Below the pieces are notes generated by a model. That model was given only the letters and a program-made list of their open reading frames with translations, ran no database searches and had not been told where the DNA came from. The translations under genes were made by a program, and so were the position numbers. Of a stretch of DNA of 30,793 bases, positions 7,871-29,403 are shown in pieces. How positions within the stretch are numbered: position 1 is the stretch's first letter; each line of letters opens with the position of its first letter. This stretch comes from Alphaproteobacteria bacterium (GTDB taxonomy: Bacteria; Pseudomonadota; Alphaproteobacteria; Rickettsiales; UBA6187): NCBI GenBank assembly GCA_024280585.1, contig JAJRPW010000109.1, positions 1 to 30,793 of the forward strand. Reading direction: 5' to 3'.

Positions 7871-8383
7871 TCAGCTAATAATACCCGGCTCGCGTTGAAC
7901 GTTTTTCTTACCAAGAGAATCAGCCAGAATATCAAGCCCCTCCTGAAATTTTATAAGATTACGGTTAATATTATGAGCCGCATATTGATTAAGACTCTTT
8001 TTGTAAGGCATTAAAAACGCTGGACGTATATTAAAAATACATAGATTGCAGATAATTTTTCTGGCACCGATCCTTTCTAAATCACTTATAGCGATCTCAT
8101 ATTCATTATAACGTGCAAAAATCCAAGCCTCATTATCTTGACGCATACAATCGCGCCCGGCCCTGTCAAACTGATACGCACCAACATCAGGCGAACCAAA
8201 ACGAAGCGTATAAAGCCAACGCAAACGAAGCCCGGCCTCATGCTGATAAACATCAATAAGCTCGCGCTTTAAGCATAAATCAAGCGGCTCAATAGTAGAA
8301 TCTTTGACCCTGCGCATTTGAAGCTCCTTGGTGCCATGATCAGTTTTTTCACGTATTATTTTAGGCCTTCCACGTTTTGCCAT
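7871..8383 (-). CDS. DUF6456-like protein, candidate GafA/GafYZ-type GTA regulator
   Basis: MAKRGRP...DHGTKEL, PLDLCLKRELIDVYQHEAGLRLRWLY and terminal EGLDILADSLG resemble the DUF6456 pattern as recalled; adjacent to the GTA cluster. Confidence 0.55.
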   Translation of the reverse strand: MAKRGRPKIIREKTDHGTKELQMRRVKDSTIEPLDLCLKRELIDVYQHEAGLRLRWLYTLRFGSPDVGAYQFDRAGRDCMRQDNEAWIFARYNEYEIAISDLERIGARKIICNLCIFNIRPAFLMPYKKSLNQYAAHNINRNLIKFQEGLDILADSLGKKNVQREPGIIS

Positions 8384-8396
8384 TTTAGAACCCTTT

Positions 8397-8795
8397 TTAC
8401 AATTTCAACATTTTTTTTAAATCTGAACATTGCTCAGATACCTTCTCCGCCTTATTCTTTGTAGCCCCGCGATGCTTTACTTTGCGCTTGTTTTTCCTGT
8501 TTGCCTCATAAATTTTTAAAGCCCGATAATGCCCACGCAAAACCATCTTAGAATCTAAGTCAGCGAATGAACAAACCAGCATAAAGTCTTGATTTTTAGG
8601 TGAAAACCAGGCAATCGTTTTTAGACGTTCAGACTTTTGTCGCGCATCAATCGGCTCTTTACTAATATCCAATATAGCCTGCATAATAACCGACTGCCAT
8701 AACGCACGTTCGGATATACAATCTCGAGCATTATAGTCAAACCTGTCTTCATCGCTGGTAGATTTTTTTTCTTTCAAATCGTAATTATTCGGCAT
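8397..8795 (-). CDS. Conserved phage/GTA-associated hypothetical protein
   Basis: ERALWQSVIMQAILD...WF...DFMLVCSFADLD motif; basic C-terminus; 13-bp gap to the DUF6456-like gene suggests an operon. Confidence 0.65.
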   Translation of the reverse strand: MPNNYDLKEKKSTSDEDRFDYNARDCISERALWQSVIMQAILDISKEPIDARQKSERLKTIAWFSPKNQDFMLVCSFADLDSKMVLRGHYRALKIYEANRKNKRKVKHRGATKNKAEKVSEQCSDLKKMLKL

Positions 8796-8963
8796 AACAA
8801 TACCCTATTAATAGTTGCATTTCTAGTTAGGATTGCAAGTATAGGTGTCTATTTGAGTAATATGCAAATATTTTTTTAATATTTTATAAAATAATTTAAG
8901 TCTTCCTTTTAACATCCTGTTATTTAAGTATAATTTTTTGTATAAAAAACTTGCTTTCTGGGC

Positions 8964-8992
8964 TTACATAAGGGTTTTTCTTCGTTTATAAT
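8964..8992 (+). promoter_or_regulatory. Sigma70-like promoter for the TerS candidate
   Basis: TTACAT(8964-8969)-17 bp-TATAAT(8987-8992), 38 nt upstream of ATG 9030. Confidence 0.5.
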
Positions 8993-9029
8993 GGTAATTA
9001 TAGGATGGAGAGTAATAGGGGGGGGGAGG

Positions 9030-9374
9030 ATGGCCGGAAAAAAGAGTCTAACGCAACAACATATGAAAAGCCTTGAAGAAAATAGACTTTTCATAACTAA
9101 CCTTATAAATCAGCTAGATAAGGTACTAAATAAAAATGAGTATGACGAAAATGAGTCAATTGAATGGAAGTATATCTGGGGAGAAAAAGAAAATGTGGTA
9201 TCATCCCTAAATAAATTAACAGGGCTGTTGCTTAAAATTATTACTATTGAACAGCAGCTTAATGAGAAAAGCTCTACTAAAACATTAAGTATAAAGAAAA
9301 AAGGTAGGATTCTTGACTCAACAGACAAAGAAATAATCAGAAGGTACGTAAAAAAATTCGGAAAAGCTTCATAG
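9030..9374 (+). CDS. Putative terminase small subunit / small helical GTA protein
   Basis: GGAGG directly before ATG 9030 (the track's 8991 start overlaps the -10 box); helical 114 aa ending LDSTDKEIIRRY; first + strand gene upstream of TerL. Function inferred from position. Confidence 0.45.
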   Translation: MAGKKSLTQQHMKSLEENRLFITNLINQLDKVLNKNEYDENESIEWKYIWGEKENVVSSLNKLTGLLLKIITIEQQLNEKSSTKTLSIKKKGRILDSTDKEIIRRYVKKFGKAS

Positions 9375-9482
9375 TGTTTTCCAAATTACAACAGAACCTA
9401 TAAAAGAAGTAAAATCAAAGCTTGTTAAAAGCTTTTTCTTAATCTAGAGTGAAGCTCAATCTCGTTAGGTAAGTGAGGATAT

Positions 9483-10070
9483 ATGGAACCAGAAAGACAA
9501 GCAGAAAAACCGCCGGAAAATCAACAAGCTACGCCCCGGCAACCGAAGCAATCGGCTCCTGTGCAACAAGAAAAAACAGTCTATCTAGGCGGCCCATCAC
9601 AAGTCATAAATTACAATACATTTATAGTTTGTGCAATACTGTTTGTAATAGTATTGTCTGCTCCGGCCATCTATAAGACCTTCCTTGCCGCACAATATTC
9701 AGAATTTAAAATGTATTATATGCTGGCCTCAAAAATATTGTTTTTTGTGCCGATAATTTGGGCTTTTTCAGTCTGGATCAAAGTTAAAATGCATAAATAC
9801 ACGATCACTACCGAACGACTAACGGAAGAAGTTGGAGTTCTATCAAAAAATACAGACGTTTTGGAGCTGTATAGAGTAAAGGATATAACTTTCAATGAAC
9901 CATTCGCACTGCGAATGTTTAGCTGTGGCAATATTATTTTAGATACATCAGATAAATCAACACCACTGGTAGTGCTGCACGCAATCAAAAGTCCAAAAGC
10001 AGTAATCGATATCCTAAGACAAAATGTAGAAATAATGAGGACTAAGAAAGGAGTGCGCGAAATCGACTAG
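9483..10070 (+). CDS. Membrane protein with bacterial PH domain (bPH_2/YdbT-like)
   Basis: Two TM helices, then KYTITTERL...GVLSKNTDVLELYRVKDI...RMFSCGNIILDTSD. Confidence 0.85.
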   Translation: MEPERQAEKPPENQQATPRQPKQSAPVQQEKTVYLGGPSQVINYNTFIVCAILFVIVLSAPAIYKTFLAAQYSEFKMYYMLASKILFFVPIIWAFSVWIKVKMHKYTITTERLTEEVGVLSKNTDVLELYRVKDITFNEPFALRMFSCGNIILDTSDKSTPLVVLHAIKSPKAVIDILRQNVEIMRTKKGVREID

Positions 10071-27826: not shown

Positions 27827-27970
27827 CCACTCCTTCCCCCTTTAAGGGGGAAGGTTGGGATGGGGGTGTTTTGTGCTAGCAAAAATAACTTATAGTTCGT
27901 TCACCCCCACCAAAATATTTTACTCACTTCGTTCGTCATATTTTGACTCCCCCCTTAAGGGGGAGTGGGG
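27827..27970. repeat. Pair of oppositely oriented BoxC-like palindromes, the second with an internal hairpin
   Basis: CCTTCCCCCTTTAAGGGGGAAGGTTGGGATGGGGG (27827-27866) and CACCCCCACC-AAAATAT...ATATTTT-GACTCCCCCCTTAAGGGGGAG (27903-27970). Confidence 0.7.
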
Positions 27971-27982
27971 TCAGAGTGATTT

Positions 27983-28381
27983 TTAAACCTCTCTTTCACT
28001 ATTTGCTTTCCTGCGGGCTAGTTTAGCAACTTGTGTGTCAGGGGTGGCTGCCTCTTTTCCGTTAACTAAATAGTTGAGAGTTTCGTAAATCGCAACTGAA
28101 AGTAAACCTTGTCCTGCTAGGCGTGCCATACCAATAAACTCTTTTAGAGTTGGAAGTGGAGGTGGAACAAGCAGCAGCATCTGTTGTTGTCTCGGTTCTT
28201 CTGCGTTGCTAATTTCAGGTATTGTTTGCTCTTCACTGCAAGGAGTTGTGCAAAAATACTTTGTTAAAGCAAAAGTCATAAGACTGCCCATGGCTATGGC
28301 AATCACAGCAAGAGTATCCTTAGAAAGGTTCTGCGAAGAGTTTTTTTCTGCTTTTGTCCTACTTACTGCTGTTTTTGGCAT
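27983..28381 (-). CDS. Small protein with two hydrophobic segments (cassette 1)
   Basis: GAGGA RBS upstream; TLAVIAIAMGSLMTFAL and FIGMARLAGQGLLSVAIY; C-terminus RRKANSEREV. Confidence 0.65.
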   Translation of the reverse strand: MPKTAVSRTKAEKNSSQNLSKDTLAVIAIAMGSLMTFALTKYFCTTPCSEEQTIPEISNAEEPRQQQMLLLVPPPLPTLKEFIGMARLAGQGLLSVAIYETLNYLVNGKEAATPDTQVAKLARRKANSEREV

Positions 28382-28394
28382 GACTCATTCCTCA

Positions 28395-28453
28395 ATAATA
28401 GTTTAAAAATTAATAAAACCTATTCGTAACGTTTTTTTTGCAGAGTCAAGGGG
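28395..28453 (-). repeat. 59-bp upstream/promoter block, copy 1
   Basis: Identical to 30059-30117; contains a minus-strand TTGACT; lies directly upstream of the 28381 ORF. Confidence 0.9.
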
Positions 28454-28468
28454 GATTTTGTTTTGTAT

Positions 28469-28520
28469 ACCCCTCATCCTAACCTTCTCCCCAAAAAAGG
28501 AGAAGGGACGTGGCAAAGAG
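28469..28520. repeat. BoxC-like palindrome with a 22-bp tail shared with 29553-29574
   Basis: CCCCTCATCCTAACCTTCTCCCCAAAAAAGGAGAAGGGACGTGGCAAAGAG. Confidence 0.75.
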
Positions 28521-28560
28521 AGCCTCAGAGAAAAATAAACCAACCAAAAAGGAAATAATC

Positions 28561-29403
28561 ATGAAAATTATATCAACACAGCTTGATGCCCATTTGGCAT
28601 TGGAAGTAACCACTACCGCTACCTGTTGGAAGCTGACGCGGCGGGATGCAACCGTGTTTGGGTTCACCAATCATGATCAGGATTTGGTGGTGGGTGGTGT
28701 CACATATCAGGCAACGAGCGGGTTTACACCCAGCGCGGTGGCAAATAATTCGGAGCTTTCCGTTGATAATCTCGACGTGGAAGGGGTTATAGATAGCGCG
28801 GTGATCGCGGAGGCGGATATCCAGGCGGGGCTTTATGACTATGCGCAGGTGGAGATTTTCATCGTAAATTACGCGGATTTAACGCAAGGGGCGCTGAATC
28901 TACGCACCGGCTGGCTCGGCGAGATCAAGTTTAGTAAGAATAAGTTTGTGGCAGAGGTGAGGGGGCTTATGCAAAACCTGGCGCAGGGAATCGGCAGTCT
29001 TTATTCGCCGTCATGCCGGGCAAAACTGGGCGATGCAGAATGTGGGATAACGCTGGCGAGTTTCACTGTTACAAGCAGCATCACAGCCGTTACAGATAAT
29101 CAGGTTTTTGCCGATTCAAGCCGGGCGGAGGCGGATGGATATTTTGCAGGCGGGGTGATTACCTTCACAAGCGGGCTCAATAATGGCCTGGCAATGGAGG
29201 TCAAAGAATTTGTCGGGGGGCTTGTGACGCTGGTTTTTCCAATGGCTTATACGGTGGCAGTGAATGATACATATTCGATGTATGCTGGGTGTGATAAGAG
29301 TTTTGGGACTTGCGGCACTAAGTTTAGTAATGTGGTGAATTTTCGGGGCGAGCCGCACGTGCCGGGGATTGATAGGGTGCTGAAAACGGCAGGGACGATT
29401 TAG
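28561..29403 (+). CDS. DUF2163 baseplate hub protein (RcGTA g13-like)
   Basis: AAGGA RBS before ATG 28561; TTATCWKLTRRD..VFGFTNHDQDL, CRAKLGDAEC and GCDKSFGTCGTKFSNVVNFRGEPHVPG. Confidence 0.95.
   Translation: MKIISTQLDAHLALEVTTTATCWKLTRRDATVFGFTNHDQDLVVGGVTYQATSGFTPSAVANNSELSVDNLDVEGVIDSAVIAEADIQAGLYDYAQVEIFIVNYADLTQGALNLRTGWLGEIKFSKNKFVAEVRGLMQNLAQGIGSLYSPSCRAKLGDAECGITLASFTVTSSITAVTDNQVFADSSRAEADGYFAGGVITFTSGLNNGLAMEVKEFVGGLVTLVFPMAYTVAVNDTYSMYAGCDKSFGTCGTKFSNVVNFRGEPHVPGIDRVLKTAGTI

Follow-up and report, generated by a model that had tools for sequence, protein, structure and literature searches.

Can a gene transfer agent (GTA) cluster keep its ancestral gene order while other DNA settles between most of its genes, and is such DNA tolerated there or selected? 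The question is raised by contig JAJRPW010000109.1 of GenBank assembly GCA_024280585.1, a stretch of 30,793 nt that was analysed whole (hereafter the window; C150 in our numbering) and that carries a cluster resembling RcGTA, the GTA of Rhodobacter capsulatus (genes g1 to g15). RcGTA is encoded by a compact operon of about 15 kb. An earlier note on the window had recognised a series of GTA genes within positions 7871-29403, with unrelated genes at most of the junctions between them, and had suggested either an intermediate stage of GTA fragmentation or a locus where GTA genes and host-interaction genes are deliberately interleaved. We conclude, with a probability of roughly 75%, that the window holds a chromosomal, vertically inherited RcGTA-type head-tail cluster, whose operon has been loosened by lineage-specific, moron-like insertions.

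The window belongs to a metagenome-assembled genome (MAG) of 1.53 Mb (205 contigs, 78% complete, 41% GC) from an uncultured bacterium that branches deeply within Rickettsiales and falls in the GTDB family that contains UBA6187 (Athabascaceae). Schön et al. (2022), who do not mention GTAs or phages, assigned UBA6187 to the Athabascaceae and predicted a free-living lifestyle for this deep-branching family of Rickettsiales. Our comparisons involved UBA6187 itself (G001), two genomes of a sister genus (G009, whose locus is L071, and G005) and a further family relative (G008). In addition, profiles of the junction genes, made from family orthologs, were searched against 49 loci, mostly from Rickettsiales.

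Particle genes keep the RcGTA order

When the 34 open reading frames (ORFs) of the window were scanned with Pfam and NCBIfam, nine were recognised as particle genes, each of them full-length and stop-free:

11391-12794, + strand: large terminase subunit, TerL (g2); Terminase_6C 1.6e-20, TIGR01630 5e-25
15293-16513, + strand: portal (g3); Phage_portal 6e-86, TIGR01537; 64-70% identity to family relatives
18526-19218, + strand: S78 prohead protease (g4); Peptidase_S78 1e-35, TIGR01543
19889-21085, + strand: HK97-type major capsid protein (g5); Phage_capsid 8e-89; 86% identity to G009 and G005
23929-24471, + strand: connector (g6); Phage_connect_1, NCBIfam
24623-24967, + strand: head completion protein (g7); Phage_HCP, NCBIfam
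25007-25834, + strand: terminator (g8) and tube (g9) in a single ORF of 275 aa; Tail_completion_gp17 and Phage_tail_2, NCBIfam
27152-27808, + strand: distal tail protein (g12); DUF2460 2.9e-76, TIGR02217 (Rcc01695 family) above cutoff
28510-29403, + strand: baseplate hub (g13); Phage_phiJL001_Gp84_N 2e-62, Phage_BR0599 2e-26, TIGR02218 above cutoff

The RcGTA order (g2, g3, g4, g5, g6, g7, g8, g9, g12, g13) is kept and every gene lies on the + strand, so that the order from TerL to DUF2163 read in the earlier note is borne out by the family identities. With at least nine RcGTA homologs and gaps of fewer than 15 ORFs, this is a "large cluster" as defined by Shakya et al. (2017; PMC5721377), who found in Rickettsiales small clusters only, of up to five genes. 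The recognised genes, together with the conserved gene o157 described below, account for just 8256 of the 18013 bases (46%) between TerL and g13, and extra ORFs occur at 10 of the 13 junctions between o127, a candidate g1, and the DUF2335 gene beyond g13.

The cluster continues on contig C187 (L078, 242-4861, - strand), which carries g14 (NlpC/P60) and a 142-aa ORF, extra ORFs of 459 aa and 349 aa that are not in G009, and then a 331-aa homolog of a 375-aa gene of G009.

The fusion of g8 and g9 is common to the window and G001. In G009 and G005 the two are separate ORFs with TAA, a ribosome-binding site and ATG between them (9041-9880 in L071), and the fusion arose through the loss of about 12 nt that took out the stop. 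Because it is found in both the window and G001, it must be old and tolerated.

Evidence for a chromosomal, vertically inherited cluster

The nearest capsids, at 76-86% identity, come from four genomes of the window's own GTDB family, UBA6187 among them. An exact-protein lookup of the window's capsid in public assemblies gave no match. In a capsid tree the family is monophyletic (support 100/99), with the window as sister to G009 and G005, and capsid identity drops with taxonomic distance; both observations support vertical inheritance. The left flank of the cluster consists of host metabolism genes (a fadB-like gene, an acyl-CoA dehydrogenase and an OmpA-domain protein).

We considered whether the arrangement might reflect a chimeric MAG or an active, inducible prophage, and regard this as very improbable. 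The MAG is indeed fragmented and repeats lie at the junctions, as an assembly artefact would have it; however, the gene order and several junction contents (o157, the TerB-like gene, rcdA, o133, o60, o180/o171 and DUF2335, all described below) recur in independent genomes. In addition, the chromosomal position of the cluster is conserved in G009 and G005, where it adjoins the nuo operon and pdxJ. Among five integrase matches in the genome none lies on C150 or C187, there is no tRNA on the contig, and no lysogeny or replication module domain was found among the 34 window ORFs. A functional prophage was rejected on these grounds, and the adjacent integrase that the earlier note had named as the sign of one is lacking on both contigs.

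Some genes between the particle genes recur with the cluster

Several ORFs at or near the junctions are conserved beyond the window's lineage:

22058-22462 (true start 22058), + strand: o157, conserved jellyroll protein adjoining the capsid gene
23332-23925, + strand: o133 and o60, directly 5' of g6; o60 is recurrent, o133 family-only
8991-9374, + strand: o127, candidate small terminase (g1), by position only
7871-8383 (o170) and 8397-8795 (o132), - strand: divergent pair upstream of the cluster
30398-30793, + strand: DUF2335 membrane protein (DUF2335 2.7e-8), which runs off the contig end

The profile search placed o157 directly after the capsid gene in 16 loci, with identities of 69-80% within the family, and the protein matches phrog_5707 (1.4e-25). 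Its predicted jellyroll model (predicted local distance difference test, pLDDT, 82) superimposes on a Caudovirales protein with a template-modelling (TM) score of 0.84 and 43% identity, with weaker matches that include the Carin1 phage capsid chain 8cjz_A and PhiJL001 gp71; its protein-atlas score to viral clusters is 0.96. o157 is probably a capsid decoration or cement protein, and as such part of the particle gene set rather than cargo, the term we use for the genes inserted between particle genes. Likewise, o60 stands immediately 5' of g6 in eight loci, one of them a Phenylobacterium GTA locus, while matches to o133 are confined to the window's family. We count o157, o60 and possibly o133 as conserved genes, either phage-derived or GTA-associated. 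The statement that most junctions hold unrelated genes is therefore right as to the number of occupied junctions, but not as to these occupants.

Homologs of o127 directly precede TerL in loci L026 and L033, and further ones lie upstream of it in G001 and G008; the protein has no family match in Pfam and phage-family scans. The o170/o132 pair recurs upstream of TerL in four to five other Rickettsiales loci, as well as in G001 and G008, and neither protein has a family match in Pfam. We considered a GafA-like activator role for the pair and rejected it: PF20057 (DUF6456), the domain of GafA/GafYZ-type activators, finds nothing in the genome even with a cutoff as lax as E <= 1, with a Caulobacter control matching. 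Finally, a DUF2335 gene occurs directly 3' of g13 in loci ranging from the window's family to Rickettsia and Tisiphia (L054-L068), and it may be a conserved component of Rickettsiales GTA clusters that has gone unrecognised.

With these genes included, the particle gene set that keeps ancestral order, strand and open frames comprises the candidate g1, g2-g5, the jellyroll gene, o60, g6, g7, the g8-g9 fusion, g12, g13, DUF2335 and g14.

The cargo differs between genera

The remaining DNA consists of orphan genes, members of multi-copy families, a few relocated host genes and small palindromic repeats, and it differs between genera. From left to right it contains the following:

9483-10070, + strand: bPH-domain protein between o127 and TerL; bPH_2 5e-11; lineage-only
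10083-10373: tandem repeats between the bPH and pilin genes, unit 122 nt, about 2.4 copies; partial copies on other contigs
10422-11165, + strand: type IV pilin-like protein between o127 and TerL; N_methyl 6e-7; about 12 paralogs in the genome
12919-13428, - strand: o169, between TerL and portal; lineage-only
13735-15174, - strand: Fic479, degenerate Fic-domain protein between TerL and portal; Fic 8e-4, below the Pfam cutoff
16531-17829, - strand: Tyr-repeat protein between portal and protease; no family match, no genome paralog
17838-18470, - strand: o210, between portal and protease; no family match, no genome paralog
19231-19707, + strand: PAS_5 protein between protease and capsid; PAS_5 9.5e-5; three paralogs elsewhere in the genome
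21097-21992, + strand: non-GTA DNA 3' of the capsid gene, a 342-bp cassette followed by the TerB-like gene
21534-21992, + strand: TerB-like protein; TerB 4e-5
22648-23079, - strand: homolog of the cell-cycle adaptor RcdA (DUF1465 9.5e-23; PDB 3CTW, RcdA, 1.5e-9)
25907-26930, + strand: paralog pair o180 and o171 between g9 and g12; counterpart L071:13192-14787; start revised to 25907 from the alignment
27983-28464, - strand: o132b, membrane-like ORF between g12 and g13, including a 70-nt upstream block
29656-30128, - strand: o129, ORF after g13, including a 70-nt upstream block

Two classes can be told apart. The rcdA, TerB-like and o180/o171 genes are genus-level additions and, like o133, are common to the window and the sister genus only, whereas the bPH protein, the pilin, o169, Fic479, the Tyr-repeat protein, o210, the PAS_5 protein, the 342-bp cassette, o132b and o129 are lineage-only. 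Within the first class, rcdA is the sole copy detected in the assembly and stands in the same place in G009 and G005 (51% identity), while the TerB-like counterpart in G009 is just 35% identical and the gene order is swapped. Within the second, the 342-bp cassette is single-copy and unique in the genome, the PAS_5 gene is not found at the protease/capsid junction of G009 and G005, and o132b has no homolog in Pfam, own-genome or PADLOC searches. The ORFs o132b and o129 were considered as paralogs and rejected: they have no protein similarity and hold in common a 70-nt block directly upstream of each (28395-28464 and 30059-30128, 97% identical) and nothing else.

The o180/o171 pair (39% identical to each other) occupies the position of the tail chaperone and tape measure, and is present only in the window's genus and that of G009 and G005. 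Both proteins are confidently predicted to be all-helical. Their one structural match is an unnamed AFDB cluster (A0A0W0YQH0, TM 0.72), and the model finds no match in the PDB and no phage counterpart; a role as chaperone or tape measure was rejected on account of this non-phage helical model. Protein-atlas matches to retrotransposon gag have few features in common with the pair and were treated as chance.

We also observed that a 161-aa gene lies 3' of g9 in G009 and G001, followed in G009 by a partly similar 697-aa gene (L071:10004-12619), and that G005 has shorter counterparts of both. The window genome has a homolog of the 161-aa gene on contig C32 (L079:1-228), where it adjoins ppk and ppx rather than g9.

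The same junctions are empty or differently filled in relatives

In the synteny comparison that the earlier note had suggested, sister genera hold nothing or non-homologous genes at the junctions filled in the window, and relatives do not carry one identical set of insertions. In G009 and G005 the portal, protease and capsid genes abut or overlap, leaving the portal/protease and protease/capsid junctions empty. G008 has a pentapeptide-repeat protein at the former and an ankyrin-repeat protein, with others, at the latter. In G001, a Fic/Doc protein and small ORFs are found at protease/capsid and other small ORFs at portal/protease; G005 has an ankyrin protein 3' of g9. Clustering of 190 inter-core ORFs gave 124 families, 87 of which are singletons. 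The shared families lie mostly on the + strand, between capsid and g6 or between g9 and g12, and are probably unrecognised particle parts.

Junction gaps in 30 Rickettsiales loci are anywhere between 0 and 4.4 kb long. Among environmental Rickettsiales loci, the gap exceeds 500 bp at portal/protease in 6 of 18 and at protease/capsid in 10 of 24. The window's TerL/portal gap of 2498 bp is the largest of eight loci, and its g12/g13 insertion is unique: wherever else the two genes occur together (14 loci), they adjoin or overlap each other. The 16-kb nuo operon served as a control; between the window genome and G009 it is compact, collinear and without insertions, and the loosening is therefore specific to the GTA locus.

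Detachment and loss are also seen within the family. TerL adjoins the portal gene in the window and in G001, whereas it is 280 kb from the portal in G009 and on another contig in G008, and in G005 the approximately 20 kb that precede the portal contain no TerL. G001 and G008 have two to three copies of g12; G002, G003 and G006 have g12 but no capsid match, and in four other family genomes neither was matched, so that the capsid was not found in 7 of the 11 other family genomes. The window is at once the most collinear and the most heavily interrupted member of the family.

This within-family gradient supports gradual loosening, followed by break-up and loss, and in that respect the intermediate stage of fragmentation proposed in the earlier note fits. 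The path from compact to scattered is not simple, however, because the reduced genomes of Rickettsia and Tisiphia keep a compact, partial block of protease, capsid, g6, g7, g8, g12, g13 and DUF2335. For the same reason, the notion that homologs are scattered in obligate Rickettsiales is only partly true.

Repeats, composition and transcription signals

Two kinds of signal mark the junctions, mobile or palindromic repeats and terminator-like hairpins:

11160-11323: MITE-like (miniature inverted-repeat transposable element-like) palindromic element 5' of TerL, 58-nt inverted arms; copies of 98.6% identity on C80 and 88% on C42
12801-12951: second MITE-like element, 3' of TerL; 98.4% copy on C125, ends resembling the element at 11160-11323
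19736-19800, + strand: two terminator-like hairpins 5' of the capsid gene, with a 12-pair stem at 19774-19800
21229-21261, + strand: strong terminator-like hairpin of 14 pairs in the 342-bp cassette
27119-27148, + strand: terminator-like hairpin immediately 5' of g12, 13-pair stem and T run

The approximately 98% identical copies of the MITE-like elements on C80 and C125 imply recent mobility. A 67-aa ORF that overlaps the hairpins at 19736-19800 is probably spurious. A further repeat, a 62-nt palindrome of the REP (repetitive extragenic palindromic) type (family D2), has copies at 23232-23293, at 28448-28509 and on several other contigs, and also lies in frame inside TerL (12238-12299). There it adds about 20 aa to the inter-domain linker before the nuclease motif QSWDTA, an insertion not seen in eight homologs, and resembles the in-frame behaviour of Rickettsia palindromic elements. 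The window, which makes up 2% of the genome, contains 4 of its 18 REP-like hairpins and 7 of its 35 GC-rich perfect hairpins (about 10-fold enriched), and most of the latter stand directly 3' of + strand particle genes (capsid, o157, g12, g13).

Composition also differs along the window. About half of the cargo genes are opposite in strand to the particle genes, and this minus-strand cargo has a GC content at third codon positions (GC3) of 0.29-0.33, corresponding to the 4th-18th percentile of the genome, or 0.37 with o169 included; Fic479, at 0.287, is at the 4th percentile. The GC3 of TerL, g12 and g13 ranks among the top 1-3% of the genome, with g12 (0.54) in the top 1%.

The suggestion that several cargo genes have their own sigma70-like promoters was sustained at one site. 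The sequence at 15202-15230 is a good match (minus strand, 10/12, extended -10), but the other two are weak: for 18503-18531 our scan gave just a 9/12 minus-strand site at 18497-18525, and 25851-25879 has a perfect -10 with a -35 of 3/6. Dedicated cargo promoters were rejected as a general feature, given that consensus matches are no commoner than in shuffled sequence.

Tail genes, selection and decay

At the tail tip, g12 and g13 score above their NCBIfam cutoffs and g14 is on C187, whereas the 78%-complete assembly yielded no g15: the 1241-aa g15 of G009 has no counterpart there, although g15 is present in four family relatives. The genome was also searched for GTA_TIM and Phage-tail_3 (g15) and for the chaperone families Phage_TAC_11 and Phage_TAC_6 (PF11836 and PF09550), without a match; for the chaperone and tape measure this is still compatible with a divergent or unassembled gene.

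These gaps invite the explanation that the window lineage carries the remnant of a defunct GTA or prophage, in which insertions mark the loss of function and ORFs remain open because decay is recent. Consistent with it are the undetected tape measure, tail chaperone and g15, the fused g8 and g9, the repeat inside TerL, the terminators between particle genes and the capsid missing from the matches of most family genomes. We nevertheless consider a decaying relic quite improbable. The nine recognised ORFs are free of stops despite a divergence from all relatives that saturates synonymous sites (nonsynonymous divergence, dN, 0.11-0.48; synonymous divergence, dS, saturated), and the capsid retains 86% identity to its sister-genus counterpart. 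Every particle gene has a dN/dS of 0.05-0.25 when G009 is compared with its sister G005, and genus-level additions give similar values. Moreover, the TerL insertion is in frame and in an inter-domain linker, the g8-g9 fusion is old and tolerated, and genes missing from a 78%-complete assembly may simply be unassembled. The description of the structural ORFs as intact accordingly stands with respect to stop codons, but has to be amended for the TerL insertion, the fusion and the tail genes not found.

Whether particles are still made by the window lineage is, on the gene content, a matter of about even odds. The gene set looks sufficient for a head and neck, but the undetected tape measure, chaperone and g15, together with the fusion of g8 to g9, cast doubt on a normal tail.

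Tolerated or selected insertions

If the operon was loosened by moron-like insertions, as we favour, the cluster junctions would tolerate insertions and the particle genes would be needed only rarely. Expression of these genes could rely on several units, on read-through or on antitermination. Inserts would arrive by illegitimate or repeat-mediated recombination, and growing gaps would allow rearrangements to split off pieces, as with TerL in G009, leading to the scattered layouts of other Rickettsiales. The cargo would then be ordinary accessory genome, outside the particle.

An alternative is functional integration, in which the junctions are a selected platform, like the eukaryotic association module (EAM) of Wolbachia phage WO, and genes for interaction with hosts or competitors are co-regulated with the particle genes or delivered by particles. 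What recommends it is the presence of effector-like domains between GTA genes: Fic and the Tyr-repeat protein in the window, ankyrin in G005 and G008, pentapeptide repeats in G008 and Fic/Doc in G001. The cargo also includes rcdA, which the match to PDB 3CTW associates with the CtrA pathway, and a PAS_5 protein, a domain that we take to be linked to the same pathway; the presence of rcdA does not, however, show CtrA control of the cluster. In addition, George et al. (2022; PMC9254644) have proposed that Rickettsiales and Holosporaceae particles may have been repurposed for host interaction. We consider such integration unlikely, because the cargo is non-homologous between genera and mostly singletons, and in about half of it the ORFs run against the particle genes and are compositionally distinct. 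Ankyrin, pentapeptide and pilin genes are multi-copy families genome-wide that would be expected wherever insertions are tolerated. Nor does the cargo have a significant C-terminal signal in common: blastp-short of the last 40 residues against the C-termini of all 1550 ORFs gave, for unrelated cargo proteins, nothing below E ~1, and the sole likeness is KTHxxAV in Fic479 and o129.

Fic479 itself retains part of the Fic motif (HPAINGNTRTKD) and matches PADLOC PDC-S04, a candidate system, at 2e-14. It has no homologs in 200 Rickettsiales genomes and none among 5.8 billion proteins. A defence-island reading was rejected, as Fic479 is the only cargo protein with a match to a defence or effector family and the other nine have no PADLOC match. 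A WO-type EAM was likewise rejected, since the cargo is dispersed and not conserved across genera and the element is not a temperate phage. The deliberate interleaving put forward in the earlier note thus lost ground on several sides: in addition to the lack of conservation, the antisense layout with low GC3 and the missing C-terminal motif, Fic479 is an orphan and several cargo genes (rcdA, PAS_5, a pilin paralog) are of a housekeeping or regulatory kind.

We think it quite unlikely that the interleaving has been selected rather than tolerated, with environmental Rickettsiales having a regulated platform that recruits Fic-like, Tyr-repeat, ankyrin and pentapeptide genes and in which either the antisense layout excludes co-expression or the cargo is loaded into or displayed on particles. 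If that were so, the locus would be on its way to becoming a device for protein delivery, a possibility on which George et al. speculated.

Several considerations weigh against the loosening of a maintained cluster that we prefer. Fic, ankyrin and pentapeptide domains recur at junctions in several genera, which could exceed neutral accumulation. Between them, the + strand terminator-like hairpins and the ORFs on the opposite strand (approximately seven) break the cluster up into seven units or more, and promoter-like sites show no excess over shuffled sequences (41 vs 33.6 +/- 4.8; 25 vs 26 +/- 4.6). No tape measure, tail chaperone or g15 turned up in the 78%-complete assembly, and the repeat-derived TerL insertion together with these missing tail genes is compatible with early decay in the window lineage. 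All comparison genomes belong to other genera and dS is saturated on the window's own branch, so dN/dS is not measurable there, and the selection check outlined in the earlier note speaks for the G009-G005 pair but not for the window itself. Most small cargo ORFs have no homolog, so that their status as real genes is not demonstrable.

Relation to known systems

Extra genes between the head and tail genes of HK97/lambda-like and P2-like prophages, in variable hotspots, are known as morons. The window's inserts resemble them in lying between head and tail genes, in having promoter- or terminator-like signals and a different base composition, and in varying between relatives. They differ in that the element is domesticated and non-mobile, the inserts include a relocated rcdA and REP/MITE-like repeats, and there is one weak match to a defence family.

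With RcGTA, the window has in common g2-g9, g12, g13 and, on C187, g14, in order and on one strand, as well as chromosomal inheritance without integrase or replication genes. Unlike RcGTA, about 54% of the span is non-GTA DNA, approximately seven ORFs are on the opposite strand, g8 and g9 are fused, g10, g10.1, g11 and g15 were not found here, and o157, o60 and DUF2335 are extra conserved genes.

The WO EAM forms a single contiguous block within a genuine temperate phage. As in that module (Bordenstein and Bordenstein 2016; PMC5062602), eukaryote-like or effector-like genes (ankyrin, Fic) are tied to phage structural modules in Rickettsiales; in the window, however, they are scattered singly in a non-mobile cluster and are not conserved between genera, which makes the analogy a looser one.

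For reduced or split GTA gene sets in Rickettsiales, PMC9254644 cites Lang and Beatty (2007). George et al. (2022; PMC9254644) described reduced, split GTA sets under purifying selection in Rickettsiales and Holosporaceae endosymbionts, and did not analyse junction contents. The window is of the same gene lineage, with the head conserved, tail parts missing or undetected, purifying selection as measured in the sister pair of G009 and G005, and a TerL that is sometimes detached in relatives. Unlike those sets, it is collinear on one contig with TerL attached, its family is predicted to be free-living, and non-GTA genes lie inside the cluster while the cluster itself is not dispersed. The locus is thus a clear, extreme example of a pattern already known in Rickettsiales, a stretched variant of a known system and not a new kind.

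Its interest lies in where it is found and in what it separates. A near-complete, collinear large cluster in a deep-branching Rickettsiales family bears on the timing of the GTA ancestor, and one family shows steps that lead from a compact operon toward the scattered sets of endosymbionts, namely junction insertion, TerL detachment and head-gene loss. Furthermore, the genes at the junctions can now be sorted more readily into conserved but unrecognised particle components (o157, o60, DUF2335), genus-level additions and recent orphans, a sorting that is needed ahead of tests of the role of such particles in Rickettsiales.

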